Source of the DNA: a virus
Length of the DNA stretch: 64,000 nt
Reading direction: 5' to 3' (one strand)
UHGV virus genome: UHGV-0141439
Shown: piece after piece, positions 25,762 to 61,647 of the stretch
Layout of the letters: every line of letters starts with the position of its first letter
How positions within the stretch are numbered: position 1 is the stretch's first letter
Notes under the pieces: model-generated
What the model saw: the letters and a program-made list of their open reading frames with translations, nothing else
Database searches by the model: none
What the model was told of the DNA's origin: nothing
Made by a program: the position numbers and the translations under genes

Positions 25762-26234
25762 TGTTTTTTAGCTCTCTGCGTGAATGTGTAAACCCGACGT
25801 TTGATATGTGGAACGGTAGGAACAGGAAGACAGGAACTTTCAATAACTCCTTGCTCCTCCAGCGATCGCACCGCCCGCAAGAACTGCGACGTGTCGCCGC
25901 CAAACTGGCGGGCATAGGTGCTGCCGTTATGAAGTATTTGAGCTATTACCCGAGCTTTTGTCTGGCTGTCACGATATGCGAATAGCCGCACGGCCTCTTC
26001 TGGCGCAATCGCTAACTGATAGCCTTTCCCGGCACGGTGTCGAATGAATCCATGCGCCAGTAGGTTTTTGAGTTCGTTACGAGTGCGAACAGATCCGTAA
26101 CCCAGGAAGTGTGGATTGATAACGACTGGCTTAAACCATTCCGTAGGTGCTTTAGCTAATAGAGCTAACAGCTTCCCGGATAATTCTGGATAGGAAGACG
26201 GGTAACAATTCAGAGATGGGTAATAAGTTTTCAC
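25758..26234 (-). CDS. Hypothetical protein
   Basis: 158-aa ORF, 4-nt overlap with dut. Confidence 0.4.
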   Translation of the reverse strand: MKTYYPSLNCYPSSYPELSGKLLALLAKAPTEWFKPVVINPHFLGYGSVRTRNELKNLLAHGFIRHRAGKGYQLAIAPEEAVRLFAYRDSQTKARVIAQILHNGSTYARQFGGDTSQFLRAVRSLEEQGVIESSCLPVPTVPHIKRRVYTFTQRAKKQ

Positions 26235-26575
26235 CGACGCCCCCTTGCAGGATATCGACCGGCATTAGTATCCGGTGCAATAAAGCCGGTAGTGGGGCGA
26301 GTGAAAGCGAGATTAATCTTCTCGACCATAGTGCGATAATTTTCCTGATAGTGGGCCAGGAGTTTTTCGGCGGCAATGATGGTTACTTTCCGGACGTAGC
26401 TTTCTGCTTCCTCCAGATTTCGCCAGTTTTTTTCGAGGGTAAACACAGGGACGGCCTCAAGCCCGGTCATGATGCCGAACACAACGACAGCATGACTGTT
26501 CTTAACACCAGCGGCGAAGGTTACGGTGTAACCATCCACCTTGAAGCGTCTTGATTCCGTGATTTGACTCTGCAA
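26231..26575 (-). CDS. Hypothetical protein
   Basis: 114-aa ORF. Confidence 0.4.
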   Translation of the reverse strand: MQSQITESRRFKVDGYTVTFAAGVKNSHAVVVFGIMTGLEAVPVFTLEKNWRNLEEAESYVRKVTIIAAEKLLAHYQENYRTMVEKINLAFTRPTTGFIAPDTNAGRYPARGRR

Positions 26576-26633
26576 AGCACCCTCCTAAATAGGCGAGGGT
26601 ACTTTACAGCAAAGACGTTAATCTAAAAAGATG

Positions 26634-26650
26634 TGTTAGAAATTTAATTT
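26634..26650. promoter_or_regulatory. 17-bp operator-like site TGTTAGAAATTTAATTT
   Basis: Exact consensus; overlaps the cre stop. Confidence 0.5.
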
Positions 26651-27677
26651 ACGAATCCATCAGGCGGCTATTAGCCCCCACAGACACGCCGCCACGGCGA
26701 AGATACCGCATAAGTGTTTCCGGTTTCTTCCAGGTTCCTTCCTGCATGATCTCCACCATAGACACCTGCTTTTCAGCCATATCAATAGCGGCCCCGACGC
26801 GTGCACTATGCCCGGTCCACGTCCGGTATCTTCCTTTGTTTGGCGTAGCATCTCTTTTATTCAGCAACACCCAGGCGTCGCTGAATATTTTCTCCATTGC
26901 AGGTGCAGTAAGGGGCGTTGTCGTGATCCTGGCCTTATTGCTACGGTGTATCGGCGGGAACAGCACTGCGTCAGGATGTTCGCGAAGCCCGGAAACATCC
27001 AGCCAGTCATTCAGCACAGCGGTAGTGCGACGGGAAAGCACCTTATCAAGCCCGGCGGCGGTCGTTATTGTCTTCGTGTGTGAAATATGTAGCGTGACAG
27101 TGTCACCTGTTTGGTCCAGATCTCCTACACGAATACGCGAGATTTCCGACATACGCATCAGCGTATTGTATGCAACAAAGAGAAAAGCCCGGTTGCGCAG
27201 GTCCACCAGCCGTTCTGACCTGGACAACAGGACGTCGAGCAGTTTCAGATCGTCCCACCGCAGCGGTATAGCCTGGCCTGTTCGTTCGCCTTTTTCAGTT
27301 GCCGCTTCGCGCCGGATGCGCCGCATAGCCAGAGAAACACTTTTATCATCCGAAAGTGGCGGAAGGCCACAATGCGAAAGCAGCATGTTCAGCATGGCGT
27401 AGTGCTTATCAATGGTGGTCGAAGCCAGATCGGCATCATGCAGCTGAAGAAAATACTCGCGGGCCATTTCTGGTGAGATCGGAAACCAGGCAAGCTGGCG
27501 AGCGTGACACCAGCGCGCCCAGGAATGAAACACCAAACGGAGGTCGCGCAGAGTATTCGGCGCATAAGCTCCCTGGTCATTCATGAACCGCATAAAGTTT
27601 TCTGCGGCTTCCTGGTACTCTTTGCCAATGTTGCGCAGAAAACCACCGGAACTGCCAGAGATAATTAATTCACTCAT
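26649..27677 (-). CDS. cre: Cre-type tyrosine recombinase
   Basis: 342 aa, collinear with P1 Cre (WFP..PE..R(E/D)YLL, VSL(A/V)MRRIR, AYNTL(M/L)R..EI.RIRV.D, W(T/S)GHSARVGAA.DMA, EIMQ.G.W); lox-like site upstream. Confidence 0.85.
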   Translation of the reverse strand: MSELIISGSSGGFLRNIGKEYQEAAENFMRFMNDQGAYAPNTLRDLRLVFHSWARWCHARQLAWFPISPEMAREYFLQLHDADLASTTIDKHYAMLNMLLSHCGLPPLSDDKSVSLAMRRIRREAATEKGERTGQAIPLRWDDLKLLDVLLSRSERLVDLRNRAFLFVAYNTLMRMSEISRIRVGDLDQTGDTVTLHISHTKTITTAAGLDKVLSRRTTAVLNDWLDVSGLREHPDAVLFPPIHRSNKARITTTPLTAPAMEKIFSDAWVLLNKRDATPNKGRYRTWTGHSARVGAAIDMAEKQVSMVEIMQEGTWKKPETLMRYLRRGGVSVGANSRLMDS

Positions 27678-27828
27678 GAAACTATTTAACCTCTATATAC
27701 AGATGACGCTACGCGAAAAATATAAAAATGACAGGGTAGCTATAAGTTAATTTTCAAGATTCAAGCCTTTGATTCGATGCACGTATTTTCAGTGATGTCA
27801 ATACTGATCATCTACCCATGATTATAGC

Positions 27829-27862
27829 CTAACTTTAAATAATGCCAATTATCTAAAGTTAG
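27829..27862. other. lox-like site: 13-bp inverted repeats around an 8-bp spacer (CTAACTTTAAATA-ATGCCAAT-TATCTAAAGTTAG)
   Basis: Read directly; 12 of 13 arm positions are symmetric; about 150 bp upstream of cre; same 34-bp architecture as loxP but different sequence. Confidence 0.6.
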
Positions 27863-28034
27863 AAATTTAGGAATTTTTTTCCTTTCCGCGCAGATGGGCA
27901 ATGCATTGCTGGTGTGGGCTTTAAGTTATGCCTGGCAGTTTTTAAGCAGAATTTTCTAAATTGGATGATAAAAAAATGCATCTTGATCCTTTACTCACCC
28001 TGTTATTCGGCATAGATTTGTCATAGTAATTTTA

Positions 28035-33962: not shown

Positions 33963-34038
33963 TGGTGGCCCCTACCGGACTTGAACCGGTGACCGTGCGA
34001 TTATGAGTCGCCAGCTCTAACCACTGAGCTAAAGGGCC
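33963..34038 (-). tRNA. tRNA-Ile2/Met type, anticodon CAU
   Basis: Hand-folded 76-nt cloverleaf with encoded CCA; closely resembles E. coli ileX. Confidence 0.8.
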
Positions 34039-34208
34039 AGATTACTGTTAATTCCGCTTACGCTTTTTGCCAGAACCGCGTAAGGCTTTTGCCGCTTGCT
34101 CGATCCCATATGCAACCACCAGCAGAAATAAAAATGTCCAACCAGGGTTCTTATCGGCAAAGGCCCAAAAATCCATCACTTGCAGCTACCTTTTAAGACA
34201 AAACGCCA

Positions 34209-34223
34209 TTGCTGTTAGATTGC
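34209..34223. other. Hairpin CCTGG-TGCCT-CCAGG
   Basis: Second member of the covarying hairpin set. Confidence 0.4.
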
Positions 34224-34450
34224 GGTGCCTGGTGCCTCCAGGTGACGTTAACCAGTTAACAATTAACGCCGGGATGTTTGATTTAACCACTAAGGAGGAT
34301 TGTTTTAACTGTTCCGCGTGCGCTTAGCCGCATTCACCGCAATGGTAAGAGCACTTGGCTGGCTGGGCGGCGATGACGCCTGTACGCATTTGGTGATCCG
34401 GTTCTGCTTCCGGCATTCGCTTAATTAGCCAAATACTCTTAACGTTGCGC

Positions 34451-34537
34451 TGGCGGAGAGTAATGGAATCGAACCATCATCGCTTGCGCAATGGGACGGT
34501 TTTCAAGACCGCTTGAGCACCATGCTCCCTACTCTCC
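34451..34537 (-). tRNA. tRNA-Ser, anticodon UGA (class II, long variable arm), tentative
   Basis: 87 nt; GGAGAGT/ACTCTCC acceptor stem, loop CUUGAAA, GGTTCGATTCC T-arm, encoded CCA; D-arm spacing is atypical. Confidence 0.55.
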
Positions 34538-34682
34538 GGCCGTTGTGGTGGCCGGTACTGAATCTCCGGCATACGGTGCAGCCAATTAGGACTACGGACG
34601 ATCACCGCTCGCGAAAGGGAAGATTTGCGGCCGCATTTCCCTAACATCCAAGAAAGCTATCGCATCAGTCTGCGAATCCACC

Positions 34683-34774
34683 ACAACGTTGAGAACACTG
34701 GTTGTCACGCTGCAACGCAACATTTATTCGTAGATTGGGATATGACCCCGTTACGTCAGTGTTCTCAACGTTGT
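34683..34774. repeat. Perfect 18-bp inverted repeat ACAACGTTGAGAACACTG with 56-bp spacer
   Basis: Arms at 34683-34700 and 34757-34774. Confidence 0.6.
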
Positions 34775-35002
34775 AGTACCGGTTACGGTTCCGGCCAGGC
34801 CTCTTCCTCAACGGGGTATTCTCCATACGGACTACCGTTTATTGGTCGTTCCTGCGGTTTATGTTGTGAAGCCAGATGCTTATCTTCTGGTTGCTTCAAA
34901 GAGCTGCACTTCATCACAACGGTAAGGGTACTTCGTAGGGATTCGAACCCTCTGCCAAGCACGGCGATCTCCGACGTCGCAAAATACCCTTACCTGTTGT
35001 GT

Positions 35003-35078
35003 TGGTGCCGATTAACGGACTCGAACCGCTGACATCCTGCTTACAAGGCAGGCGCTCTACCAACTGAGCTAAACCGGC
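35003..35078 (-). tRNA. tRNA-Thr, anticodon UGU
   Basis: Canonical 76-nt cloverleaf, loop CUUGUAA, encoded CCA. Confidence 0.8.
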
Positions 35079-35080
35079 AT

Positions 35081-35157
35081 TGGCGATGGTGGGTGGATTC
35101 GAACCACCGACCGACAGCTTAGAAGGCTGCTGCTCTATCCTACTGAGCTACACCATC
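35081..35157 (-). tRNA. tRNA-Arg, anticodon UCU
   Basis: Canonical 77-nt cloverleaf, loop CUUCUAA, encoded CCA. Confidence 0.8.
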
Positions 35158-38861: not shown

Positions 38862-39122
38862 TTAAAGGTTTATTTTATCCGGTTCGGATATTTCTGTGAT
38901 TGTCTTGTCGATTGCGATCAACCACCCTTCATAGGTTAAATCATCAACAAGCTCTACCAGTTTGTCTTCTGTATGAGGGAAGTATACCCAGCTCCAGCTC
39001 GCTGGGTTTTCTGCTTTTCGCAGCGTAAAAACCTTCTTGTAACGGTGAAACTCAAGGACATACCCCTTCGATATGGAATATTCCTTTAGGTCTTCGACCG
39101 TAAACCTACGATTCTTTCGCAT
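38862..39122 (-). CDS. Small hypothetical protein
   Basis: 86-aa ORF. Confidence 0.35.
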   Translation of the reverse strand: MRKNRRFTVEDLKEYSISKGYVLEFHRYKKVFTLRKAENPASWSWVYFPHTEDKLVELVDDLTYEGWLIAIDKTITEISEPDKINL

Positions 39123-39124: not shown

Positions 39125-39559
39125 CTACCCCATGATTCGATATTTCTCTATTGACTCGTCGTAACTTGTGTACACGTATGGCTCTGTATCATCAGCATAA
39201 GGTGCGACTTCCAGAGCATGAACGGGATTGTATACCGCGTCATTTTCCAGGCGATCGCTCGAATACAGATGCCCAGCCAAAACCGTAAGCGCCGGGCGAC
39301 TCATTTTGTAGATCTCTGCCACATCACTATCTACAACTTGTCCAAATGATATGTCGCCGCGCTCCAGCAATATCGTTTTGAGCGCGGGCCACCACGGACC
39401 ATAAAGGTGATAAAGCTGTGGATTTTTCTTCAGTCTTTCTACCATGCCATCAAGATAAACTGTCAGGTATTCTTCTTCACTCCTGCCATTGAGTGCCTGC
39501 GGCAAGATTTCCTCAAGGTAGGATTCCGTCGGTTTTACAGTGTCAATTAGTGTCGTCAT
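39125..39559 (-). CDS. Hypothetical protein immediately downstream of the DarB-like gene
   Basis: 144-aa ORF. Confidence 0.4.
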   Translation of the reverse strand: MTTLIDTVKPTESYLEEILPQALNGRSEEEYLTVYLDGMVERLKKNPQLYHLYGPWWPALKTILLERGDISFGQVVDSDVAEIYKMSRPALTVLAGHLYSSDRLENDAVYNPVHALEVAPYADDTEPYVYTSYDESIEKYRIMG

Positions 39560-39595: not shown

Positions 39596-42500
39596 TTAGG
39601 CCGCATCGGCGATTATTTTACGCAGTTCATCTACCGAGTAACGCGTAGATACCATCCACGCCGGACGGTCAAAGTTCACATCAGCAACCGGGTTTGCTTC
39701 AAAATTCCAGAAACGCCCGCCAATCTTCTTAATCGCGTCTTTGGCGTTCCGTATTGTCGAGGAACCTGGCTGGTCGGCAATGAGATAAACCGCGCCAACG
39801 TCTTCGCTGACGCTCCACCAGCGCCCGCGAACACGCGCCTTAGCGCGAATCGGCTTATCATTAACCACAATGATATAGTCATCATTCGCCGCTTCATCAG
39901 CTCTGGCTTCAGCCACTGCCGCCTGCTCTTCTCTTTTGCTTTCAGCCTGCTCAAGCCTTTCCGCGATCTCTGATTCAGTGGCCCCGCCGTTTTTCAGCGA
40001 TACATAGTCCTGCCACGTTGCCGATTTGAGCGCATCCGGCAACTCATTCACATAGTCGCCGTCTTTCAACTCACGGGCGCGACGGGTAGCCATTTCTACC
40101 AGGCGATTAACAGAAACAGCATCAGCAAAATCGTCCTTACTAATGTGTTTTTCATCAAATGCATTGATGACAGCCCCCACCTTAATCCACTGTGCTGCTG
40201 GCGAATCCAGAGGATTATCGGCCTGAACAATGGCTAATTTCGCTCCATCGACACCATTATTAGCCAGCTGCTCCAATGCCGACCAGCCATCGGCATCGCT
40301 GAGTGATTTATATTGCTCAAACAATGCATCGCGCCAGGCCACCAGCGCAGCTCGTGTTTTCTCAATTTTCGCCGTAATTTTCGCGGCCTTCACCTGATTA
40401 AACATCCGTTCAATGTCATCAGTGTTGCTAAAGGCTTTCATCCTGCCCTGGAATAAACGGTATGCCACCACGGTCTTCCAGAAAGATTCCAGCCCTTCTC
40501 CGGACGGTTTACGGAACAGGCTAAGAATATCTTCAGAAGTAACTTTATTAAGTGAGCGACCGGACAAACCACGCCCTGCCATCCAGTTTTCAAACTCCTG
40601 GGAAACATCATCCATCGTGGCCTGTGACCCCCATGCCTGCATTCCCTGGATGTAATCATATCCATACAATGCCTGGAGGAATCCCTCTCCGTCCACGATA
40701 TTCAGCGGGTTATCACTGGCTTGTATTTTTGCCACTTCACGCTTCAGCGCCTCATCGTTGCCATCAGGGTAAATCCACCGCTCAGGCGCTATATCCGATG
40801 CTCGCCCGATTTTTTGACCTATTACGCCATCATAAGCCGATGACAGTGCAATCTGACCATCATCGGTGCGATAAGCCCAGTATTTAATAGCTGAACCACC
40901 GCCCCATACTCTACCAGGCTTCCCGGCAGTGACATTCATTACCCCATTGCGAATAGCATCATAGAACTGATCGCGCGTAAGTGTTGTTGATAGCTGGTGG
41001 CATTGAACACCACGTGCAGCTGTTTCACGCGATTCTGCAACTCCCTCTTCAAAGGTTACCGATTCAATTATCAGGTTAAAGGGCAAAAATAATGCCGTCC
41101 CCGGAGAACGAGAGTAACGACTAGCCACATCCAGCCAGGATATGCGGCACGTACACCCGCCCCTTTCCGCATCAATGGCGGTAACACGAACAATTGCTGT
41201 CGTATTGTGATTCTCATCGATGATCGCGCGATAATGGCTGCCCTTGTGCAACAAGATATTTTTCTCAGTGCGTACATACTCCTGTGGGTTCTGCAATACA
41301 TCGGCATCAAGCTCCAGAACCCCGGCTTTAATCGCACGTTCCAGATCACCACGAGAACGTTTCATAACGGTGTCAGCGTCTTTAGCTCTGGTGATCGCAA
41401 AGCGTAGCTCCCGCACACGTTTTCTGTAGTCTCGCAACTGTTCCAGAACATATTTCTGCCCGTTCCTGTTCGTCCCCGCTTTAATCAGGTCGTCAACATT
41501 GCGCTGGTAATGCTCTACCTGCTCCATCGCGCTTTTCAGTTCAGTCTCCATCATGCCGATATCTTTCCCGGCAGCATTCGCCGCTTTCAGGTAGTTATCG
41601 AGAGCATTATTGGCTTCGCGTAGGGCTTTCAGTTTCAGACGTTCTTCACGCTCTTGCGCCTGACGACTCATGATTGCACGGCGTTCTTCCGGATTTGCCG
41701 CCAGCATAATGGCGCGTTCATCTGCGTCATCCGCATCACCATTGGCGATCTCTGACATGTCGGAGGTCATCACCATATTGATCCAGTCCTTCTTACGTTT
41801 CAGCGTATCCAGACGGAAGTCATCAAATGTGCCTTTGCCACAATAGTAGTGAACATTGACCTTTTCTTGTGGTGAGCCTACCCGAGCGCCGCGTCCATTA
41901 CGTTGGTCGATACTGGCAGGAGTCCAGGGTAGTGTCAGATGGTGGATATCGGTTGTCCCGATGTGCAAGTTAATACCTACTTCAGCCTTCTTGTTACAGA
42001 TTATGATGCGCGTGCGACCTTCGTTATAGTCGGCGGCAATACCTTCCATGCCCTCAAGGCCAGCATCATTTTTAGCTGAGAGATAATCCTCATATTGGGC
42101 AAGTTTGCTGTAGTAGGTTTCCCATGCACCTTCTTTGTATTCACCGTTTTTATTTGGCGTAGGTTCAGTCGGCTTATTCACCTTCTTCAGCTTGACGCCG
42201 CCAGCCTGGCTAACTGTCGTCGCATTGATAATGCCTATCTCCTGCTCCGGCATTTGCAGTGCACTGGCAATAATACGGCGCAGCTTCTGGTGCTGGGCTT
42301 TTTCATCAATGAAGACGATTTGTTTACCGTTCTTCAGACCTTCACGAAGGTTTTCGATCAGCGCGGCATACTTCGGCGGGATGGGGTGTGATACCTGCTG
42401 CATATCAATACCGGCAGCCGCAATGGCCTTCAGTATTTCAGCTTCCAGTTCAATGCCAGCACGTATTTCAACATGCGACGGATGTTCGCTAAAGGTGGTC

Positions 42501-45500
42501 TTCACTACCTTGCTGGTACGCGTACTGACCAGCCCACCAGCGCCATCTTCTTCGGCATCGTCTACATCATCTGCCACTTTACCGCCAGCTACTTTTGGCA
42601 GGGCATCAGCAATAGCTTTTACCTTGTCTGCAAGCTCAACGGGGAACTGGAATGTAATCGCACTGGCATACAGATCAGGATCTATAGCAACCTTATCCAT
42701 GTCGCGGATGATGGAGAAGATGAAATCATCCGGTTTTTCGTTTGTGATATGCCCGTTTTCATCGACCGTCAGCGCATCTTTACTGCTTAACTCCTGTGCA
42801 CGCTTACGAAGTTCTTCGTAAATGGCCTCTTGCTCTCCTGTCATCGGGATCTGCAAGGTATTCTCGACAATATCAGGGATTTTTACCGTCGCCCCGACGT
42901 CAGCAGCAGTCTTCAGAGTAGTCCAGCGATGGAAAATACCACGCAGACCATCCAGGTTCTGGAAGCCCACCAGTCCCTGCTTCTCTTCCACCTCACCGGA
43001 AATTTTCTGAACCTGAACTGTGGCTGTTTTACCGAACACGCGAACGAAATCATCCGGCGTAACAATACCCATGCGCATCCACTCTTCCTGCGGAATGACA
43101 GTAGACAGCATGTTGAAAGCATCAATCGGGCTGTTCACCAGCGGTGTTGCCGTCAGCATAACCACACCACGCCCGTTGTTGCGTTTCATCATGTACGCAG
43201 CTTTTACAGCCATGTCGCGGGCCATTTTGGATACTGCCGGGTTAGGCAAATATGCCAGTTGCCCCGCTTCGCGCCCGGCGCTAAAGGAGTTGCGGTAGTT
43301 ATGCCCTTCGTCGGCAATTACGCTATCGAAGTTCATATCCTCAAAGTACGGGATATTCTGCTTCTTCGTTGTACCGGTATTTGCGGCCTGGTCCTTAATC
43401 TTGTTCTTCTTCTGCGCGTCACGGTGTTTGCCAGATGCCAGGTCAAGACGCCCCATTTCCACAGCATTAAAGACCGCTTGCTGTGAGTTTTCCTCAATGG
43501 TTTCTTCTCGTAGCGGGATAGACGCGAATTGCTCTTTTGTCATGATGACCGTTCGCCAATTTGACGACGGGATCATGTTCATGCGCTGAACGATAACGGC
43601 GCTGGCGGACTCTTTCACAACATTTCTGGTAAGAGCCTGCCCGTTACTGTCGAGGCGTGGTTCGCCATTTTCATCAAGCACCGGCGCGGTCAGAATATTT
43701 CCGCTGTCATCACGAACTTCATCCAAACCGATAAACATCATATTGGCGAAGGCATCAGCACTGTAGAAACTCTGTGCCTCGTGATACCAGTTCTGATAAA
43801 CCGCCTTCGGAACAACAATACACGTGCGTTTAGTGCGACCTGTTTCGAAGTTATACGCCTCAAGCGCAAGCGCGGTCGTGGTTTTACCCAGCCCGGTGCC
43901 AAATCCCATGATGCCGCGCCCATCTTCTGATAAGCGACGAACTTCTTCATTCTGATAAGTCAGAGGAATGCGCTTCCCACTAATCCCCTCCAGGCCAAGC
44001 GGTGCGTCAGAATGCGTAAACGGGATGAAGCCATTAAATGCGTCGTTATAGTCGCGGGCTATCTGATCAGCCTGCGGGTGAGTGCGTAACCAGTCGTTGA
44101 AGCTAATTTCCAGTTGAGCAATCTTATCCAGGTACTCGTTAGCGTTCTGCCCACGCGGTTTAATGCCGTTCAGGTAGTTTTCTAACTGGTTCAGGAAGCC
44201 GTCTTTATTGTTGGCCTTCTTGAACTCATTCCCGTTTTTGCCGTTTACGGTTCGTAGTTGATAGCCAGTAAATACCCCGTCCTTACCTTCGTAATCGTCC
44301 GGAGATACCAGAATGCCGTCCTCAACCTTAAGGTCGGGTTCTGTATACTTAAACTCGTCATAGCCTTGCTCTGCCAGGAACTCTTTTATCAAGCGGCGAT
44401 CCAGCCAGCGGGCGTTCAGATTAACGGTGACTTTATTTAGTGGCGTGAAAATGCGTTTCTCTTCGATTTTCGCCAACTGACGCTCAAAGTTCGCTTTCTG
44501 CTCACCTGTTGACGCATCACGCCAGCCCACCAGCAATGCTGTTTTGGTTGCAATATCGCCGCTGGTGGCGCGGTCCATAGGCAGCAGGCAGCCATACCCA
44601 TCAATAGCGATATCATCAAATTTCGCCAGGTATTCCAGAGCAGCATCGTCGTCTCCTGGCAGTTCGCCAGCAAACGCCTCACGAAAATAGTCCAGTGTGA
44701 TTGGATTAAGTGCCACGTCACTGAAAAGGTGGGTTACAACTTGTTCCGGGCGTGTAAAGTCAATACCGGCAGCACCATCCGTTACATCAAGTCGTCCAGC
44801 AAGGAGGTCAGAAGCAGAGCCGTCCTGTTTCACGTTGCCAGTGAAAGTCATCCAGTTTTTAGCGCCAGCTTCAGCAATCCCATTCAGCTTAATCGCGTGC
44901 GGCGGACCATACTTCGCAATTTCGGCTTCCGCCAGGCGCGCGGCATCAGCAAGTTCATCATCAACATTTTCCCCCAGATTACGCTTATCAAGCGCCTTGT
45001 TGATCAACTGCCCTATCAGTGCGCCGCGCATAACGCGTTCTCTGTCTTTTTCTCTCTGCTTGCCAGCAAAGCGAATCATTGCCGCTACTTCATCACTGAT
45101 AACCGACGGATAGTCGGACGCGATCGCCGATATCTGGTCCCATGACAACGCCAGAATGCCATTTGTTGACTGAAACGCGATCTGCAGATCACCAAACGTC
45201 GTAACACCATATCGATTTACATCAAGCGCGGAGGATTTGGTTGTCGCGTCCTTGACCCATTTCAGACCATCAAACTCATGCCAGATGCCGCCTACAAGGC
45301 GTTTATCGCCCACTTTCGCGCCCTGCCATGCCTGAGTAGTTACGCCAAGCAAATCCCAATTAATGCGGCTTTCAAAGCGGCGCGATAGAGCGGTTTTCAT
45401 CGACTCATTGGATACACGACCGTCCTTTTTCACCACCAGGGTATTGCGGAAGCTGGTACGCTCCATATCGCCGTAAACAAATCGCTTCCCTTCGGTTGTA

Positions 45501-46435
45501 AACCATTTCCCTTTGAGGAAGGTATCCCAAAGGACGTTTGCCGACTTGAGCGTTGCATCATCCGTGTCGGGGATCATCTCCAGGAAGGTTTCCGGGTGTT
45601 TACGCAATACCCATACGTCCACCACTGTATCTGTACCGGATTCGCTGAACGTACCAGAAGGCATACGATGTGCGCCCAAAAATTCCGCTTTACGGCTGAC
45701 TTTATCGCGCAATTTTTTGTATTTCGTACCATCGGTCATGCCATTCGGCACCACCAATACAATTAGTCCACCAGGCTTAACCTTGTCGATCGTGCGCAGC
45801 ACAAAATAATTGCCAACGTTCTTCTCGTTTGCATATGCCGGATCAAGCCCGGCGACACCGGAACGCCCTTCGCCAAACGGTACGTTACCAACAGCATGGT
45901 CATACATTGCGTCTTTCGCCGCCAGAGCTTCAAACGCCCCGATATTCACATCGTCTTCCGGGTGCAAAAGCTGGTTTATTCGACCGGAAATCGGAGACAG
46001 TTCGGCGCTGGTCATTATCATGCCCTGCCGTTTTGTCTCCTGGAAAATACCTGTGCCCGCTGATGGTTCCAGTACGTGCCCACCATCAATACCGTAGTCA
46101 GCAAACAGATCCCATATACCTTCAGCCATAAACTGTGGCGTGTAGTATTCGTATTGGCTGCCCTCACCATCTGTCAGGCCACCTTCACCGGTATACCCGG
46201 CAAGAATCTGACGTTGTTCGTCAGTTAATTTCGCCCCATCGAAGCCGGGCGGAAGGGAATTAAGAAGATTTACTGCGGCATTGTTTGCTGCCCGGCGTGT
46301 TTTCTGAATACTGACGCCATCGGCTTTCCTGACGCCAAAGGTCGCAACAGCACGTAATTTATGCAACCGACTAACAATTTCAATCAGTTCGCCTAAGCTG
46401 GAGGCTTCACTGATTGAATGAAGTAGTTTGTCCAA
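39596..46435 (-). CDS. darB: DarB-like giant methyltransferase-helicase (2279 aa)
   Basis: N-terminal N6-MTase motifs (VLEPSAGTGIF; NVPF) and C-terminal SF2 helicase motifs (GTGLGKT, DEGH, TATP, QRNGRGAR); size close to P1 DarB; TTG start after a GAGGGGG RBS. Confidence 0.7.
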   Translation of the reverse strand: MDKLLHSISEASSLGELIEIVSRLHKLRAVATFGVRKADGVSIQKTRRAANNAAVNLLNSLPPGFDGAKLTDEQRQILAGYTGEGGLTDGEGSQYEYYTPQFMAEGIWDLFADYGIDGGHVLEPSAGTGIFQETKRQGMIMTSAELSPISGRINQLLHPEDDVNIGAFEALAAKDAMYDHAVGNVPFGEGRSGVAGLDPAYANEKNVGNYFVLRTIDKVKPGGLIVLVVPNGMTDGTKYKKLRDKVSRKAEFLGAHRMPSGTFSESGTDTVVDVWVLRKHPETFLEMIPDTDDATLKSANVLWDTFLKGKWFTTEGKRFVYGDMERTSFRNTLVVKKDGRVSNESMKTALSRRFESRINWDLLGVTTQAWQGAKVGDKRLVGGIWHEFDGLKWVKDATTKSSALDVNRYGVTTFGDLQIAFQSTNGILALSWDQISAIASDYPSVISDEVAAMIRFAGKQREKDRERVMRGALIGQLINKALDKRNLGENVDDELADAARLAEAEIAKYGPPHAIKLNGIAEAGAKNWMTFTGNVKQDGSASDLLAGRLDVTDGAAGIDFTRPEQVVTHLFSDVALNPITLDYFREAFAGELPGDDDAALEYLAKFDDIAIDGYGCLLPMDRATSGDIATKTALLVGWRDASTGEQKANFERQLAKIEEKRIFTPLNKVTVNLNARWLDRRLIKEFLAEQGYDEFKYTEPDLKVEDGILVSPDDYEGKDGVFTGYQLRTVNGKNGNEFKKANNKDGFLNQLENYLNGIKPRGQNANEYLDKIAQLEISFNDWLRTHPQADQIARDYNDAFNGFIPFTHSDAPLGLEGISGKRIPLTYQNEEVRRLSEDGRGIMGFGTGLGKTTTALALEAYNFETGRTKRTCIVVPKAVYQNWYHEAQSFYSADAFANMMFIGLDEVRDDSGNILTAPVLDENGEPRLDSNGQALTRNVVKESASAVIVQRMNMIPSSNWRTVIMTKEQFASIPLREETIEENSQQAVFNAVEMGRLDLASGKHRDAQKKNKIKDQAANTGTTKKQNIPYFEDMNFDSVIADEGHNYRNSFSAGREAGQLAYLPNPAVSKMARDMAVKAAYMMKRNNGRGVVMLTATPLVNSPIDAFNMLSTVIPQEEWMRMGIVTPDDFVRVFGKTATVQVQKISGEVEEKQGLVGFQNLDGLRGIFHRWTTLKTAADVGATVKIPDIVENTLQIPMTGEQEAIYEELRKRAQELSSKDALTVDENGHITNEKPDDFIFSIIRDMDKVAIDPDLYASAITFQFPVELADKVKAIADALPKVAGGKVADDVDDAEEDGAGGLVSTRTSKVVKTTFSEHPSHVEIRAGIELEAEILKAIAAAGIDMQQVSHPIPPKYAALIENLREGLKNGKQIVFIDEKAQHQKLRRIIASALQMPEQEIGIINATTVSQAGGVKLKKVNKPTEPTPNKNGEYKEGAWETYYSKLAQYEDYLSAKNDAGLEGMEGIAADYNEGRTRIIICNKKAEVGINLHIGTTDIHHLTLPWTPASIDQRNGRGARVGSPQEKVNVHYYCGKGTFDDFRLDTLKRKKDWINMVMTSDMSEIANGDADDADERAIMLAANPEERRAIMSRQAQEREERLKLKALREANNALDNYLKAANAAGKDIGMMETELKSAMEQVEHYQRNVDDLIKAGTNRNGQKYVLEQLRDYRKRVRELRFAITRAKDADTVMKRSRGDLERAIKAGVLELDADVLQNPQEYVRTEKNILLHKGSHYRAIIDENHNTTAIVRVTAIDAERGGCTCRISWLDVASRYSRSPGTALFLPFNLIIESVTFEEGVAESRETAARGVQCHQLSTTLTRDQFYDAIRNGVMNVTAGKPGRVWGGGSAIKYWAYRTDDGQIALSSAYDGVIGQKIGRASDIAPERWIYPDGNDEALKREVAKIQASDNPLNIVDGEGFLQALYGYDYIQGMQAWGSQATMDDVSQEFENWMAGRGLSGRSLNKVTSEDILSLFRKPSGEGLESFWKTVVAYRLFQGRMKAFSNTDDIERMFNQVKAAKITAKIEKTRAALVAWRDALFEQYKSLSDADGWSALEQLANNGVDGAKLAIVQADNPLDSPAAQWIKVGAVINAFDEKHISKDDFADAVSVNRLVEMATRRARELKDGDYVNELPDALKSATWQDYVSLKNGGATESEIAERLEQAESKREEQAAVAEARADEAANDDYIIVVNDKPIRAKARVRGRWWSVSEDVGAVYLIADQPGSSTIRNAKDAIKKIGGRFWNFEANPVADVNFDRPAWMVSTRYSVDELRKIIADAA

Positions 46436-46586
46436 AGGATTTCCCCCTCTAAACCGTAAAAAATTCCGCTATGCGGTACGGTTGAGAGGGTATGGAGAAT
46501 GTTATTTTCATGGGGACGATACTACCGTCAAAATCACATACTCCCCATAGTTTGCCTACTTATTAACCCATGACCGGGAGAAAAAT

Positions 46587-47072
46587 ATGGCAAATATTGA
46601 ACCTCGCTGGCTAATTGAAGCCCGTAAGCACATTGGCCTGACTGAAATAAAAGGCGCTAAACACAACCCTGAAATCGTTCAGTTCTGGCGCGACATCAAG
46701 CGCGGCGGAATTAAAGACGATGAAACGCCGTGGTGCGCAGCATTTGTCGGTGCAATGCTGGAACGTGTAGGCATCCACTCAACAAGATTTGAGTCGGCAA
46801 AATCCTATCTGGATTGGGGCGAGAAATTAGATACACCGGCATACGGATGTATCGTTGTATTTACCCGCGTAGGCGGTGGGCACGTAGGCTTCGTTGTCGG
46901 ACGCCGTGCCAATGGCGATCTGCTTGTCCTGGGTGGGAACCAGGGGGATGCGGTTAATATTCGCGCATTCCCAACATCAAGAGTGTCTGGCTATCGCTGG
47001 CCTGCTGGCGAACCACGCAATACCGCTCTGTTACCAGTCGGAGACGCAGCAACCTCAACTAATGAGGCATGA
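46587..47072 (+). CDS. TIGR02594-like protein (CHAP-like putative cell-wall hydrolase)
   Basis: 161 aa; conserved Cys (PWCAAFV) and His (GGHVGFVV). Confidence 0.5.
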   Translation: MANIEPRWLIEARKHIGLTEIKGAKHNPEIVQFWRDIKRGGIKDDETPWCAAFVGAMLERVGIHSTRFESAKSYLDWGEKLDTPAYGCIVVFTRVGGGHVGFVVGRRANGDLLVLGGNQGDAVNIRAFPTSRVSGYRWPAGEPRNTALLPVGDAATSTNEA

Positions 47073-47096
47073 AAAAAGCCCCGGCCTGGCCGGGGC
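47072..47096 (-). terminator. Hairpin terminator ending the ant operon (minus strand)
   Basis: GCCCCGGCC-T-GGCCGGGGC with an A-run on the + strand (U-run on minus). Confidence 0.55.
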
Positions 47097-53649: not shown

Positions 53650-55014
53650 TTACCCAACAGAGGTTGACTCAAACATAGAAAAAATTAACCCTTTACCTTC
53701 GCCAAACTCAGTCTCAATTTCATCAGAAACGGCAGATAAAATGCTACGCAGATCGACATCTCCGCCGCCGAACATATCGCCTAACGCTTGTTGCTGGTGA
53801 ATAAGCTCATCGTTAATTTTTTGCGCCAGTTTCTTGAAAGCAGCCCCCATACGCTTAGCGCTTCTGTTGTTGGCAACAATAAACAGAGCAAGCGCTTCCG
53901 CTTCCGGAGTGCTATCTCCAAACAATCCGCGCTGTGCGATCACCTCTTCTACTGCCTGACCGTTATCTTTTGCTTCACGAACAAGGTTAATTGCTTCCTG
54001 TAGCGCGGCAATAGCCTGTTTATCCAGCCCATTCAATTGCTCTATGCCGTCTACTAGTCCGGTTACCGTGTCATGGTGAACATCGCCTGAAAGTGACTGC
54101 ATTTGCGCAAAATCGCTGGCTGCCGTATTTAATGCGGTAAGGATGTTACGCATTTCCGGATCTGGCTCTTCCGCCACCAGCCGGACAAGCCTTTCATCCT
54201 TGTACGCTTTGGCAAAAATTGCATTCTGGATGCGGTCGATAAGTTGTTTCGTTGGACGCCCATCGGCAGTAAGCAAACCTGCCGTCGCCGTATCACCTAT
54301 TTCGCGCAGAAACGCACGAATAAACGCATCATTGGACCGCGCCAGTAGATTCCCATCATCTGAAGGATTAAATAGCGCCATGACGCTCTCAGTGAGAAAT
54401 TGCGCATCCGCATACGCTTTTTCACTTGCAGCCATCTCTTGCAGATCGCTGATGTTTGAATCGCGGGCAAATTGTGCGCGGTCTACATCTGTGAGTCTTT
54501 CGCGCACCAATACGGGCATAGACATTTGTGAAATGTCGTCAGGATTCAGACCAAACTCTTTTGCATGATCGATCAGGTACTGGCGATATTCATCCGCCTG
54601 CCCTTGCTCATAGGCACGCCAGATACCCATGCTCCTTCCGTTGCCGGATTCAACAACGTTGTCCGGACCAACTATCGGCGCTCCGTGGCTGCTCATGCCG
54701 GAATCCGTTAATTGTGCCGGGCGTAAATTGGAGGCAATACGGTTAACCTGGAGTTTGCTGGATAGCCGTGTACGGTCACGTGGCTGGAGTTCTTCCGGGA
54801 AGGCCGGATTAATCGTACCGTCAAGGTTGTTCGAAATGATCAGGCTGCTGGCATCAACGACCTTAAAAGCCGTCTTTACCTCTGCCCCTTTACTGGTGAC
54901 TACGTAACTACTGCGCCCCTGGCGTGTTTCTCGCCTCTCTAATGAAGAAACCAGCGCAATAACACTGTTAATGTCTGCTGCTTCGGATATCGCGGAAGTA
55001 ACTGACTTGTTCAA
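53650..55014 (-). CDS. Hypothetical 454-aa protein (DarA-operon-like position)
   Basis: Track ORF; no motif recognised. Confidence 0.4.
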   Translation of the reverse strand: MNKSVTSAISEAADINSVIALVSSLERRETRQGRSSYVVTSKGAEVKTAFKVVDASSLIISNNLDGTINPAFPEELQPRDRTRLSSKLQVNRIASNLRPAQLTDSGMSSHGAPIVGPDNVVESGNGRSMGIWRAYEQGQADEYRQYLIDHAKEFGLNPDDISQMSMPVLVRERLTDVDRAQFARDSNISDLQEMAASEKAYADAQFLTESVMALFNPSDDGNLLARSNDAFIRAFLREIGDTATAGLLTADGRPTKQLIDRIQNAIFAKAYKDERLVRLVAEEPDPEMRNILTALNTAASDFAQMQSLSGDVHHDTVTGLVDGIEQLNGLDKQAIAALQEAINLVREAKDNGQAVEEVIAQRGLFGDSTPEAEALALFIVANNRSAKRMGAAFKKLAQKINDELIHQQQALGDMFGGGDVDLRSILSAVSDEIETEFGEGKGLIFSMFESTSVG

Positions 55015-55107
55015 AATACACTCCCCTTACATAGAAAGCAGGAAGTGTAAAAAGTGTGTGATTTATGGACTTACAGGAAAGTGAAAGGGGCATTTCAGCC
55101 CCTTTGA

Positions 55108-55476
55108 TTACCCTGCATAACCGTTGGCTTTCACCCAGCTTATGGTCTGCTCTTTAGCCTGTTCCAACGTAAGGAACTCGCCTACATAGTTTGAGATCCC
55201 ACGTAGCGCATCAATAAATTCCATTTGCGTGGACTTTGTGAATGCACCTCCAAGGAAGTCTGTCACTATCTTAGGAATGTCACCTGCAACAGTATCTGGC
55301 TGCGCCTGCGGGTCCGATACTGATTGGGCCGCAGCCCCAAGCCCCAGTTTAAGCATCACATCAACAATCTGCTTACCAATTGAGACGCGTTGCAATACTG
55401 GCGCGGTTTTCTGCGCCTGCATTAGATCTGATAGCTCTTTACCTAATTTCAGGCGTTCTAAAACAGAGATAGCCAT
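55108..55476 (-). CDS. Hypothetical 122-aa protein
   Basis: Stop abuts the start of the 654-aa gene. Confidence 0.4.
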   Translation of the reverse strand: MAISVLERLKLGKELSDLMQAQKTAPVLQRVSIGKQIVDVMLKLGLGAAAQSVSDPQAQPDTVAGDIPKIVTDFLGGAFTKSTQMEFIDALRGISNYVGEFLTLEQAKEQTISWVKANGYAG

Positions 55477-57440
55477 TAAGCACCTCCCTGCTGAATTTCA
55501 GCCAGAATATTGATCAGGTAGTCAACGGCTGCACCTACAGTTGCTTCGTTCTCGTCATATCGACCAGCACTGATTAGAGCGTTTGCTGCTTCCTGCACAT
55601 GATCAAGTTCAGCACTGATGACCGTCAGATCGCGGGATGTAAACTGCTTCGGCACGGATTTCAGGTACTCCAGCGCTTTATCTGCCTCCTGATCAGCTTC
55701 ACTTGCTGATTCACCAGCTTCTTCTGGCTCCGGCTCCTGTTCTGGTGCTGGTTGTGGTTGTGATTCCGGCTCAACCACATGCTCTGTTTTTACTTCGCTT
55801 GAATGATTTTGAAGGGCGTTATACACGTCCATAATGAAAAGGTTCTCCCCATCACCAAGTGGATACGCCACGTTTGGAAACGCTTTGCGGAAAAGAATTT
55901 TCACTTGCGCCTTGAATGTTTTCAGGTCACTGCCAAACAGGTCTACATAGCCATCAATATGTTTCGACATGCTGGACACAACCAATTGGCCTGCAAAATC
56001 TTTCAGCTCATCTTCATCAGGAAGATAGAGCAACTCGTACTGGCTGACTTCTTCATCTGTCAGTTTACGGTCATACGTAATGATACCGTGACGAGCATAT
56101 TCGTAATACTGATCAGCCTGGTCAGGACGATCAAGCACGGCTTTATTTCCATCCGGCACAGCACCAACACCAGCCGGGCGAGATTGAAGTGCATAGTGGT
56201 ATTTACCTACATCTTGGCTCTCTGGTTGTGATACTGGGTTCGTCTCGGGGTCTGTCTGTGGTGGTTCGGAGTCTTCCTGCTGGCCTGGTAACACATCAAC
56301 TTTATATTTATCTGCGTTATGCTCTCGGTAGGCTTTAAGTAATTTGGTTGCAGCATCTGCCAAACTGCCTCCTTTGACAGCACTGGCATCAATACTGAAT
56401 TTACCTTCAGGTGCTACTATCGTAACGAAATTGTCACTGCCGGACGTGACATAATTAACTTCAGCGCCATTATCCAGCACTGTTTTTCCGTCAATGGCAA
56501 GATTATGTTTTACATGTCGCAGCTGGTCACTAAACGCTCGTTCTTTCGTTTTTTCACCTTTAGCAGACAACAATTTATCGCGTTTTGCTTGTAATTCCTC
56601 GTTGATGGCTTTCTGGGCATCAAGTTTTTTTTGCATCTCCGTAAGAGCAGCACGCTTTTCAGTCAGCCCACGTTGTGCAACGTCCACCTGATCAATCATT
56701 ATTGACCGTTCTTCTGCCAGTTTATCTGCCTCATTGAGATAACTCTCAATATCTGCCTTCATTTTGTCCTGGCGCTCTTTTGCTTTCTTAAATTTTTCGC
56801 TGTTACGCTCAATCAAATTAGATAGCGCCTGGCATACCTGGCTTAAAGAAACATCTCTCCCACCAATCGGGGCGACAACGTGAGTTACGTTACGCTTATT
56901 AAGTAAAAACTGAAATGCAACAAGCTCGTCGTTACTCTTTATTTTTGCCCCGTCAGCTGTTGGAGAGTGGAAAATTATGCTTGTACTCTGCCCGTCAGTA
57001 AGCGGTATCTGCGCGGTCAAAACAGGGATATTAGCTACCCGACGCACACGACCGATAATCGCACCACCAATACAATTACGTCCATTTTCATCGGTCCCGG
57101 CTTCATCAGTCCCTGCCATAATATTCGTACCATTCAGGCCACGATTCAGCGCACGGACGAAAGCTCGCATTGTTTGAGCTAACCGAATTCTGGTTGTAGT
57201 TATGGACTCAAACATAGCTTCGTCAGACACAACCAGTATTTCATTGCCCATATAGGCAAGCTCAATATCTTCTAAGGTCGCCGCCTCAAAAATCAGGTCA
57301 TCTTCGCTTAATTCTTCTGAAGACCAGCGACTTGGCACATAGCCGGGGATCGTATCAGCAAAAGTAGACTGAATATTAATTCGTAAAGGATTGTTAATCA
57401 TGCTCATCCTCCAGGCGCGCGATTTCTTCTTTAAGAGCAC
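55476..57440 (-). CDS. Acidic 654-aa protein; DarA-like candidate by size and position
   Basis: Follows the LydA/LydB-like genes in the same direction, as darA does in P1; no sequence-level confirmation. Confidence 0.35.
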   Translation of the reverse strand: MLLKKKSRAWRMSMINNPLRINIQSTFADTIPGYVPSRWSSEELSEDDLIFEAATLEDIELAYMGNEILVVSDEAMFESITTTRIRLAQTMRAFVRALNRGLNGTNIMAGTDEAGTDENGRNCIGGAIIGRVRRVANIPVLTAQIPLTDGQSTSIIFHSPTADGAKIKSNDELVAFQFLLNKRNVTHVVAPIGGRDVSLSQVCQALSNLIERNSEKFKKAKERQDKMKADIESYLNEADKLAEERSIMIDQVDVAQRGLTEKRAALTEMQKKLDAQKAINEELQAKRDKLLSAKGEKTKERAFSDQLRHVKHNLAIDGKTVLDNGAEVNYVTSGSDNFVTIVAPEGKFSIDASAVKGGSLADAATKLLKAYREHNADKYKVDVLPGQQEDSEPPQTDPETNPVSQPESQDVGKYHYALQSRPAGVGAVPDGNKAVLDRPDQADQYYEYARHGIITYDRKLTDEEVSQYELLYLPDEDELKDFAGQLVVSSMSKHIDGYVDLFGSDLKTFKAQVKILFRKAFPNVAYPLGDGENLFIMDVYNALQNHSSEVKTEHVVEPESQPQPAPEQEPEPEEAGESASEADQEADKALEYLKSVPKQFTSRDLTVISAELDHVQEAANALISAGRYDENEATVGAAVDYLINILAEIQQGGA

Positions 57441-58029
57441 GTGTCTTAGCTACTTCCTGAGACAAGGCAGCTTTAACGTTACCCGTATCTTGCATTACTT
57501 TGTCTGACTTGCTCTGGAGTTTAGACAGTTTGTCGTTAGCATTAGCGATATCTTCACGGAGTGCATCACGTGATTCTTTCGCTTCAGCTAATTTCTGAGC
57601 GTTAGATTTAACTCCCTGCCGCTTCTTATTTCCGTCATCAATATTTTTTGCTGCACGAGCAAGTTTTCGAGCTAATGACTTCTGGAAAGAAGTTGCTCCG
57701 CGATTAAATAAAGCCGCAAGAGATTGCCCCAAAGCCGACATTGTTTTTACTGGCTTGAACGGTACTGTTTTACCATTCAGTTTGATCCCAGATATATCAC
57801 CGGTATCGTTAACCTGAACTTCCATTGTCTGTTCATCAATACCAATAAGGGTAAACGTGCGCGTCATGATCCCATCTTTCTTCCTGCCATTACTTGCAGG
57901 GATCACCCTCGCTATCTTGTAACCACCTTTGCTGATTTCTTTGACGAGTTTTGCCAGCCCCTTTTCGTTTAACTCATCATAATTAAGAAGAACATAATTA
58001 TTCTTATTTGACATCCCAGTCTCCTTCAC
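57394..58029 (-). CDS. Hypothetical lysine-rich 211-aa protein
   Basis: Track ORF overlapping its neighbours. Confidence 0.35.
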   Translation of the reverse strand: MKETGMSNKNNYVLLNYDELNEKGLAKLVKEISKGGYKIARVIPASNGRKKDGIMTRTFTLIGIDEQTMEVQVNDTGDISGIKLNGKTVPFKPVKTMSALGQSLAALFNRGATSFQKSLARKLARAAKNIDDGNKKRQGVKSNAQKLAEAKESRDALREDIANANDKLSKLQSKSDKVMQDTGNVKAALSQEVAKTRALKEEIARLEDEHD

Positions 58030-58881: not shown

Positions 58882-59442
58882 ATGCTTATTGGATACATTC
58901 GCGTATCAACTAATGACCAAAACACCGCTTTACAACGAAACGCCCTTGAAAGCGCAGGATGTGAGCTAATTTTTGAGGATAAGGCGAGCGGCAAAAAGGC
59001 TGAACGCCCAGGGTTAAAAAAGGTTCTGCGTATTCTTTCCAGAGGTGACACCCTGGTCGTATGGAAGTTAGATCGTCTTGGGCGCAGCATGCGTCACTTG
59101 GTTGTGCTGGTGGAAGAGCTGCGTGACAGAGGCATTAACTTCCGGAGTCTCACTGACTCCATCGACACCAGTACACCAATGGGGCGCTTTTTCTTTCACG
59201 TAATGGGGGCGCTGGCAGAAATGGAACGTGAGCTTATCATTGAACGTACACGCGCTGGACTTGATGCAGCTCGCGCAGAAGGTCGTATAGGTGGGCGTCG
59301 GCCTAAATACCAAGAAGAAACATGGCAGCAAATGCGGCGATTGCTGGAGAAGGGCATCCCTCGTAAGCAAGTTGCAATCATCTATGATGTGGCTGTTTCC
59401 ACGCTTTATAAGAAGTTTCCGGCATCATCATTTCAATCCTAA
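58882..59442 (+). CDS. cin: Serine DNA invertase (Cin/Gin/Hin family)
   Basis: 186 aa, near-collinear with Gin (MLIGY(I/V)RVSTNDQNT, DTLVVWKLDRLGRSM, SPMGRFFFHVMGALAEMERELIIERT). Confidence 0.9.
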   Translation: MLIGYIRVSTNDQNTALQRNALESAGCELIFEDKASGKKAERPGLKKVLRILSRGDTLVVWKLDRLGRSMRHLVVLVEELRDRGINFRSLTDSIDTSTPMGRFFFHVMGALAEMERELIIERTRAGLDAARAEGRIGGRRPKYQEETWQQMRRLLEKGIPRKQVAIIYDVAVSTLYKKFPASSFQS

Positions 59443-59590: not shown

Positions 59591-60554
59591 TCGAACAATC
59601 AACGGGGTGGGATTTGATGGTTCTAAAGATATTACACTGACTCCTGAAAATCTTGGCTTGACGGATATCGTGTCTCAAGCTGGTAACGCCGTTCAGCGTT
59701 CCGGCGATAAAATGACCGGAGAACTGAAAATTGGTACGGTGAATGCGCTTCGGATATTTGATGAAGCATTCGGTCTTATTTTCCGTCGTTCAGAAGATTT
59801 TCTTCATTTCATTCCGACGGCTGAAGGACAAGGCGAAAACGGTGATATCGGCCCATTAAGGCCATTCGCTATAAATCTGAGAACAGGTGCTATATCTGTC
59901 AGCCACGGGGCCAAAATTGAAGGAGGTCTAGCTATTGGTGCTACTGATAACGCACTGGGTGAAAACTCCATTGTTCTGGGAGATAACGACACCGGATTTA
60001 GGCAAGATGGAGATGGTATTATTAGCTTCTATTCAAATGGTTCGCGCATCGGACATATTGATGGGTTAGGATTATATCTTTATAAAGATATTGAATCTAA
60101 TGGCAGCAATTTTAGATTAAAAAGTAATTACCGCCACCACATTACATTCGCCAACGAAGACGGAAGTATTCGTATGTTTTTGTGGAAAGATAACGGTGGT
60201 GATGGTGTTCATATTAATAACGGTTCAGATGGTGGTGGTGACTTCATCTTTAAAAGGGATGGCGGTTTCACTCTGGGAAGTGGTGCGCAAGTCGCGTCTA
60301 GTGGCGATATTTATGGTTCAGTGTGGGAAAACAACTGGTTAAGCACATGGCTGCATAATCATGTCGTTCGGGATATTCGTCTTGGCAGCATTGAACATAA
60401 AAACGTATGGCGCGACTACGGCTTTGGCGATGCGTCAGGTTATGTTTTAACAGCCGCAATTAACAGCAATGCGGATGATATTGTCGACACTGTTGCCAGA
60501 AGGCCAATTCAGAAATTGATTGGGGGAATATGGTACAACGTGGGGAGTGTTTAA
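59490..60554 (+). CDS. Alternative tail-fibre C-terminal segment (Sv'), expressed only after inversion
   Basis: Its N-terminus [36 protein letters not shown] is the same as the segment encoded across the right repeat of the S gene. Confidence 0.7.
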
Positions 60555-60555
60555 G

Positions 60556-61083
60556 ATGATGCACCTGAAAAATATTAAGGCCGGGAATCCGAAAACACCG
60601 GAACAATACCAGCTAACTAAAAAAGCGGGCGTGGTATGGCTCTTTTGCGAAGATGGCAAGAACTGGTATGAGGAACAAAAGAATTTTCAGCCAGACACCA
60701 TAAAAATTGCTTACGATGAGAACAACATCATCGTTGCTGTCAGTAAAGACGTTTCAACTATTAATCCTGAAGGGCTAAGCATAGTTGAAGTTCCTGATAT
60801 TACGGCAAATCGTCGCGCAGACAATAACGGAAAATGGATGTTTCTGGATGGTAAAGTAGTAAAGAGGGAATATACAGAACAGGAACTGCAACAACAGGCC
60901 GAATCACAAAAGGCCGCGTTACTTTCCGAAGCAGAAAGCGTTATTCAGCCACTGGAACGCGCCGTCAGGCTGAATATGGCGACGGATGAGGAACGCGCAC
61001 GACTGGAGTCATGGGAACGCTACAGTGTTCTGGTCAGCCGTGTGGATACGGCAAATCCTGAATGGCCACAAAAGCCTGAATAA
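60556..61083 (+). CDS. Tail-fibre assembly protein, alternative copy (U')
   Basis: [45 protein letters not shown] is paralogous to 61112-61645. Confidence 0.75.
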
Positions 61084-61645: not shown

Positions 61646-61647
61646 AA

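Follow-up and report, generated by a model that had tools for sequence, protein, structure and literature searches.

A DarB orthologue and a predicted six-gene Dar set in the D6-like virus genome UHGV-0141439

The window analyzed here is the whole 64,000-nucleotide (nt) stretch of the virus genome UHGV-0141439. On its minus strand, a single uninterrupted open reading frame (ORF) at 39596..46435 (stop codon included) encodes 2279 amino acids (aa) from a TTG start, as the initial annotation had proposed. This ORF was identified as darB by its homology to orf15 of Escherichia phage D6 and to DarB of phage P1 and by its placement in phrog_1685. P1 DarB, the archetype of the family, has been under study since 1987. 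Positions given below are those of the window, and residue numbers are those of the window DarB.

Over its full length, the gene was 92.9% identical at the nt level and 95% identical at the aa level to D6 orf15 (MF356679; ASR76325.1), which the depositors of the GenBank record labeled “defense against restriction; similar to P1 gene darB”. Alignment to P1 DarB (AAQ13985.1) paired residues 1-2279 with residues 1-2255 at 40% identity across 2370 aligned columns (E = 0), and the size match to P1 suggested earlier was borne out (2279 aa against 2255 aa). In PHROGs, the protein fitted the 2278-position family phrog_1685, with the match running from 1 to 2279, and also matched phrog_10089 “DarB-like antirestriction” (4e-78). 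Full-length homology to P1 DarB, the close identity to D6 orf15, and the presence of all five Dar partners (described below) together upheld the DarB-like assignment. A chance ORF was ruled out by the ratio of nonsynonymous to synonymous substitution rates (dN/dS), which was 0.07-0.09 for the whole gene against three orthologues.

The TTG start was found to be credible because four observations agree on it. A Shine-Dalgarno sequence, GAGGGGG (46443..46449, minus strand, read from the sequence and identical in D6), precedes the TTG with a 7-nt spacer. The earliest in-frame methionine is residue 103, yet residues 1-100 can be aligned with P1 DarB beginning at P1 residue 1. The orthologues of D6, an E. 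marmotae plasmid, and an S. dysenteriae plasmid all carry TTG at the same position, and the 170 nt upstream of the gene are nearly identical in D6. P1 darB, in contrast, starts with ATG.

Two enzymatic domains were recognized in DarB, whose parts all lie on the minus strand. Residues 96-285 (45581..46150) form a predicted gamma-class N6-adenine DNA methyltransferase, with the TP cap YYTP at 97-100, motif I EPSAGTG at 123-129, and motif IV NVPF at 184-187. The N6-methyltransferase motif set named in the initial annotation was therefore present, with the qualification that motif IV departs from the canonical (N/D)PP(Y/F); NVPF is also the P1 sequence and does not vary among 14 homologues. Residues 820-1545 (41801..43978) form a predicted SNF2-type superfamily 2 (SF2) helicase made up of an N-lobe (820-1180), an acidic/helical insert (approximately 1180-1460), and a C-lobe (1460-1545). 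Its motif set is complete and identical to that of P1, as had been expected for the helicase part: motif I GTGLGKT (846-852), II DEGH (1042-1045), III TATP (1095-1098), and VI QRNGRGAR (1511-1518). The catalytic motifs of the window DarB as a whole equal those of P1 and are invariant among homologues at 40-76% identity. Between the two domains lies a conserved region (residues 286-819; 43979..45580) with 27-47% identity to P1.

The domain annotation suggested as a check gave Pfam matches to SNF2-rel_dom (1e-13, residues 840-1050), ResIII, and Helicase_C; N6_Mtase fell just under its cut-off (20.2 bits against 20.4), and the Eco57I match was also weak. For the methyltransferase domain, the matching sequence in the PDB was the type I HsdM 7eew. 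An AlphaFold2 (AF2) model of residues 1-830, built from a 14-sequence alignment, reached a mean predicted local distance difference test score (pLDDT) of 68 and a predicted template modeling score of 0.41, with locally confident stretches at 400-530 and 570-800. When this model was searched against the PDB with Foldseek, the significant matches were only to HsdM/M.EcoKI, M.TaqI, BsaXI, CamA, and PglX of the bacteriophage exclusion (BREX) system; all are gamma-class adenine methyltransferases, in line with Iyer et al. (PMC5512222), who classed the domain as EcoKI/TaqI-like. The same search returned nothing specific to residues 300-820 beyond the methyltransferase fold. Pfam searches of four DarB sub-regions at E values up to 1, including residues 286-819 and the C-terminal 580 aa, gave no match.

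At the N-terminus, residues 1-30 (46346..46435) are the positional equivalent of the P1 capsid-targeting sequence and may serve the same function; they align to P1 without gaps and with about one third of positions identical, and the sequence rule for the signal is not known (PMC9024508). Within the first 60 residues, which contain this region, the E. marmotae allele (L005:1001-1180) differs from the window and D6 alleles, with 78% identity. Residues ~40-95 (46151..46318, boundaries approximate) form a helical LPD36-like domain with the motif GEGG at 83-86, an assignment made from the GxG[GAS] motif and its position alone; Y81, T82, G83, G85, and G86 are nearly invariant among homologues. The LPD36 domain and the methylase-SNF2 dyad model of polyvalent proteins were defined by Iyer et al. 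2017 (PMC5512222), and DarB, judged by its predicted domain order, fits this methylase-helicase dyad.

Beyond the helicase, a charged, Glu/Lys/Arg/Ala-rich linker, possibly a coiled coil, occupies residues 1546-1699 (41339..41800; 15-32% identity to P1), followed by a lineage-restricted module at residues 1700-2279 (39599..41338). Identity was profiled against P1 and three further DarB-sized proteins (P0016, P0028, and P0033; 38-54% identical to the window DarB). It peaked in the methyltransferase core (60-300) and in the helicase lobes (780-1200 and 1440-1560), was intermediate at 300-800, and was lowest in the last 580-650 aa. Against P1, these last residues gave 7-28% identity per 60-aa bin and 18-25% per 100-aa bin, with several indels. 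A search of 1.84 billion representative proteins with the module returned only 21 matches, and the three full-length ones were DarB-sized (2251-2289 aa). A word-indexed homologue search with the DarB C-terminus gave only 14 near-identical fragments. No PDB match for the module was obtained in a profile search with the C-terminal alignment, in which the methyltransferase matches came from full-length rows. A single-sequence AF2 model of the C-terminal 580 aa was discarded as unusable (mean pLDDT 44).

The gene is under strong purifying selection. Within it, dN/dS was lowest in the methyltransferase domain (0.01-0.04), followed by 0.01-0.05 in the helicase and 0.08-0.15 in the C-terminal module, the fastest-diverging part of the protein, which is thus constrained despite its divergence. 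One segment stood out in the comparison with D6: residues 1701-1800 (41036..41335) were 66% identical in aa compared with ~95% elsewhere, and their synonymous divergence (dS) was 1.69 against 0.23-0.32 in most other segments. The E. marmotae allele agrees with the window in this segment. Positive selection was rejected as the source of this patch, given a dN/dS of 0.15 at a dS of 1.7. The drop in identity together with the rise in dS indicates that the patch was probably imported by recombination, and by these allele comparisons darB is mosaic.

The element itself was placed by comparison with D6. The window is collinear with D6 from approximately 62.3 kb, across the D6 origin, to approximately 34.9 kb (D6 positions), and window positions 34215-59623, a 25.4-kb block that includes darB and the dar operon, are 94.8% identical to D6. 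By this alignment the window is a D6-like plasmid prophage of E. coli, related to P1. E. coli plasmids of ~90 kb that are non-mobilizable, NZ_CP069886 among them, carry copies of darB at least 99% identical in nt, and in 113 plasmid records the match spans at least 80% of the gene; copies are also present on D6-like Salmonella and Shigella plasmids. RefSeq names the plasmid copies merely “SNF2-related protein”.

All five partner genes of the P1 Dar system were found as homologues, again on the minus strand. The ulx homologue (39125..39559; 144 aa) lies 36 nt downstream of darB and is 48% identical to P1 Ulx (E = 1e-44; phrog_1629 “Ulx-like anti-restriction”, 5e-59). The remaining four, hdf-darA-ddrA-ddrB, occupy 53650..58014 behind lydA-lydB, as in P1, and so the candidate DarA-type operon marked at 53650-58029 was confirmed (blastp, PHROGs, NCBIfam). 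The hdf homologue (57394..58014; 40% to P1 Hdf; phrog_1620 “Hdf-like antirestriction”, 1.6e-76) starts at the ATG at 58014, as in D6. The darA homologue (55476..57401; 39% to P1 DarA, E = 2e-141) was assigned the D6-equivalent ATG at 57401, the longest ORF beginning at 57440, and its product scored 1154 bits against the NCBIfam equivalog anti_RE_DarA (cut-off 350). The ddrA homologue (55108..55476; 122 aa) is 34% identical to P1 DdrA and matches phrog_1855 “DdrA-like anti-restriction protein”. The ddrB homologue (53650..55014) is a short form of 454 aa with a TTG start, 64% identical to residues 2-446 of P1 DdrB. D6 DdrB has the same short length; the C-terminal half of P1 DdrB is annotated as a “possible metallopeptidase”. 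By homology and gene order, the window holds a complete six-gene Dar set in a P1/D6-like arrangement. Directly after ulx, an 86-aa ORF (38862..39122, minus strand; phrog_6844) takes the position of P1 lxc (bof); it had no detectable similarity to Lxc and no Pfam match.

Upstream of darB and divergent from it lies a 161-aa TIGR02594-family gene (46587..47072, plus strand), whose product is similar, too, to the C-terminal end of phrog_1259, a baseplate-hub/tail-lysozyme family. In the E. marmotae relative (L005:392-889), an extra carboxypeptidase-regulatory-like gene stands between darB and the TIGR02594 gene. The P1 late-promoter consensus AAGTKAYT-N5-TANNNT was matched 5 times against 3.65 expected, with zero matches upstream of darB; a late-promoter look-alike at 46539-46519 was rejected for its wrong spacing. 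A weak sigma-70 match was seen at 46531-46504, and sigma-70-like matches in the scanned region overall were not above chance. A strong hairpin terminator (47078..47096) with a perfect 8-bp GC stem, GCCCCGGC-CAG-GCCGGGGC, followed by TTTTTT, was reported on the minus strand 643 nt upstream of darB, just beyond the end of the TIGR02594 gene. This hairpin would shield darB from the upstream minus-strand operon, and by its position alone it could also terminate the plus-strand TIGR02594 gene.

Recognition sites for type I enzymes and Chi sites were counted in the window. EcoKI sites numbered 5 (8.4 expected) and EcoBI sites 14 (11.1 expected). EcoA is the system countered by DarA/DdrA in P1; its site, EcoAI (GAGN7GTCA), occurs once in the 64 kb, at 1976..1989, against 5.2 ± 2.5 expected, which is not significant alone. 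Avoidance of type I sites was therefore rejected, as none of the three counts was significant. Because the numbers of EcoKI and EcoBI sites do not depart from chance, the element would depend on active protection and not on site avoidance. Chi sites (GCTGGTGG, both orientations) numbered 48, against ~2 expected for a random 8-mer, and six of them fall inside darB, at 39815, 40339, 40993, 42534, 44527, and 44561. P1 is likewise Chi-rich, with 11 Chi sites in its darB.

Other parts of the window departed from D6. About 10.6 kb gave no blastn match to D6 positions 1-89000, namely 9779..10901, 14429..15145, 18223..22398, 22877..24040, 25687..27951, and 59626..60499. Part of 25687..27951 may match D6 positions 89001-91159, which lay outside the sequence compared. 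The insert at 18.2-22.4 kb codes for Ead/Ea22-like and DUF551 proteins of the kind usual in lambdoid accessory regions. The tail-fiber C-segment (60501..63096) matches the opposite strand of D6 at just 79.6% identity, from which the Cin-invertible segment is read as both diverged and in the other orientation; cin lies at 58882..59442 on the plus strand. A tRNA cluster at 33963..35157 (minus strand) comprises Met(cat), Ser(tga), Thr(tgt), and Arg(tct). The D6 annotation gives Asn, Thr, and Ser at the equivalent site, and the tRNA complement thus differs between close relatives.

Knowledge of how the system behaves comes from P1. The six Dar proteins are components of the P1 head, among which DarB (250 kDa) is present at ~40 copies per virion and is the last to be loaded; the first 30 residues of DarB are enough to send a reporter there (PMC9024508). 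None of the other Dar proteins is packaged without Hdf and DarA (PMC12810830). Mutation of darB in P1 brings sensitivity to EcoB and EcoK, and Dar protection acts solely in cis, on DNA from the same head (PMC12707154). Plasmid-based darB assays are confounded by restriction alleviation driven by Chi and EcoKI sites (PMC11109961). Packaging in virions and the effect on restriction have both been demonstrated for P1 alone (PMC9024508, citing Iida 1987 and Piya 2017).

Taken together, these results favor the reading, to which we assign a probability of about 80%, that the ORF is a darB orthologue and the large enzymatic subunit of a complete Dar system on a D6-like plasmid prophage of E. coli, with translocation-coupled cis-methylation as its mechanism. 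By analogy with P1, DarB of the D6 lineage would be packaged in the virion and would act against restriction. If P1 is a guide, the protein would be synthesized during lytic growth, and its N-terminal ~30 residues would recruit it into the prohead. It would be loaded last, in a manner that needs Hdf, DarA, DdrA/DdrB, and Ulx. Tens of copies would then be ejected with the DNA and would protect this co-ejected DNA, only in cis, against type I restriction of the EcoK/EcoB type. In the recipient cell, DarB may remain bound to the co-injected duplex, and its SNF2 motor may move along the incoming DNA while the attached gamma-class N6-adenine methyltransferase acts on adenines during translocation, by modifying or at least engaging them. 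Host type I enzymes would as a result never face naked, fully unmodified sites.

Several points weigh against this reading. No convincing darB promoter was found in the late-consensus and sigma-70 scans, and the putative capsid-targeting region is just one third or so identical to that of P1. The C-terminal quarter is only 18-25% identical to P1, and the systems countered may differ. DdrB has 454 aa against 995 aa in P1 and lacks the C-terminal half of the P1 protein. The non-canonical NVPF leaves catalytic competence without guarantee. We know of no demonstration of a methyltransferase or ATPase activity for DarB, even for that of P1, and, to our knowledge, no experiment exists on the D6 lineage. 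Reviews call the biochemical mechanism of DarB undefined (PMC11109961; PMC12707154).

Protection could instead come from the motor and not from methylation, with the SNF2 translocase evicting or stalling HsdR motors or coating sites while the methyltransferase acts as a clamp on DNA or a flipped base. The NVPF at motif IV in place of NPPY/F would suit this explanation, as would ~40 copies per head acting strictly in cis (PMC9024508; PMC12707154), and a shielding hypothesis is quoted in a 2025 EcoSal review. However, no variation occurs in the S-adenosylmethionine (SAM)-binding motif I, in the TP cap, or at the Asn and Phe of motif IV, and a dN/dS of 0.01-0.04, the lowest in DarB, is unexpected for a mere clamp. 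We regard action by the motor in place of methylation as somewhat unlikely. Translocation-coupled cis-methylation, as modeled by Iyer et al. (PMC5512222), is favored because neither the SAM/adenine-binding residues nor the ATPase motifs vary, and purifying selection on them is the strongest in the protein. The dN/dS of 0.01-0.05 in both enzymatic cores further argues that both activities matter and that DarB is no mere plug or passive shield.

The target or role of DarB may instead have shifted in the D6 lineage, toward BREX or another defense, or mainly toward head assembly or early DNA transactions. The diverged, lineage-restricted C-terminal 580 aa, a DdrB of half the P1 length, and the TIGR02594 hydrolase-like gene upstream where P1 has prt/pro could all be taken in this sense, and reviews credit P1 Dar with protection from BREX too. 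Nevertheless, conservation extends to the enzymatic cores and to every partner gene, the C-terminal module remains alignable with P1 to its very end, and the Pfam and PDB searches gave no sign of a new domain, which makes such a shift distinctly improbable. A narrower version of the idea, that the C-terminal ~580 aa form an exchangeable specificity or partner-binding module choosing type I/BREX targets and, with the half-length DdrB, give a spectrum unlike that of P1, is offered tentatively and is on balance unlikely. A defense enzyme of the lysogen, of a type ISP-like or a DISARM/BREX-like methylase-helicase kind, would also join a methyltransferase to an SF2 helicase, a fusion that recalls type ISP enzymes; Foldseek matches to PglX and LlaBIII and a weak NCBIfam match to the DISARM protein DrmD point the same way. 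That DrmD match, however, reached 43.5 bits where the cut-off is 610, and it covers the helicase C-lobe alone; nuclease, PLD, and Mrr domains were not detected in Pfam searches of DarB. Combined with DarB orthology and with the linkage of the gene both to ulx and to the dar operon of head proteins, this leaves a lysogen defense enzyme extremely improbable.

The gene and its reading as DarB are already known from the D6 GenBank record, and near-identical plasmid copies are abundant. What is gained is a clean annotation for those plasmid copies that carry only the generic RefSeq name, and a description of D6-like phage-plasmids, common in E. coli, Salmonella, and Shigella, with a predicted complete six-gene Dar set. 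The map of constrained parts (the enzymatic cores) and variable parts (the putative targeting region at the N-terminus and the C-terminal module) could guide experiments on mechanism. Mild novelty is confined to the C-terminal module, mosaic and restricted to the lineage, in combination with a DdrB of half the P1 length.

Among known systems, D6 is the closest, with the same TTG start, upstream region, and upstream TIGR02594 gene, and with ulx and the 86-aa ORF downstream, all as in the window; its orf15 differs from the window DarB in the patch at residues 1701-1800, where 66% identity is accompanied by saturated synonymous divergence. P1 DarB shares whole-length collinearity, the YYTP/EPSAGTG/NVPF and SNF2 motifs, and ulx directly downstream, and P1 also has the hdf-darA-ddrA-ddrB operon after lydAB. 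Unlike the window, P1 has prt/pro as the upstream neighbor of darB, where the window has the TIGR02594 hydrolase-like gene. HsdM, M.TaqI, and PglX have the methyltransferase fold and motif order in common with DarB, which differs from them in being without an HsdS-type specificity subunit or a recognizable target-recognition domain, in its fusion to an SNF2 motor, and in its presumed counter-defense role. The polyvalent dyad that Iyer et al. described from phages and conjugative elements combines, like DarB, LPD36, an EcoKI/TaqI-like TP-capped adenine methyltransferase, and a SWI2/SNF2 ATPase with helical inserts. These polyvalent proteins, among them the “DarB-like” giants of Bcep22-like and PEp14-like podophages, differ from DarB in that they carry many extra effector domains and are without the P1/D6-specific C-terminal module.

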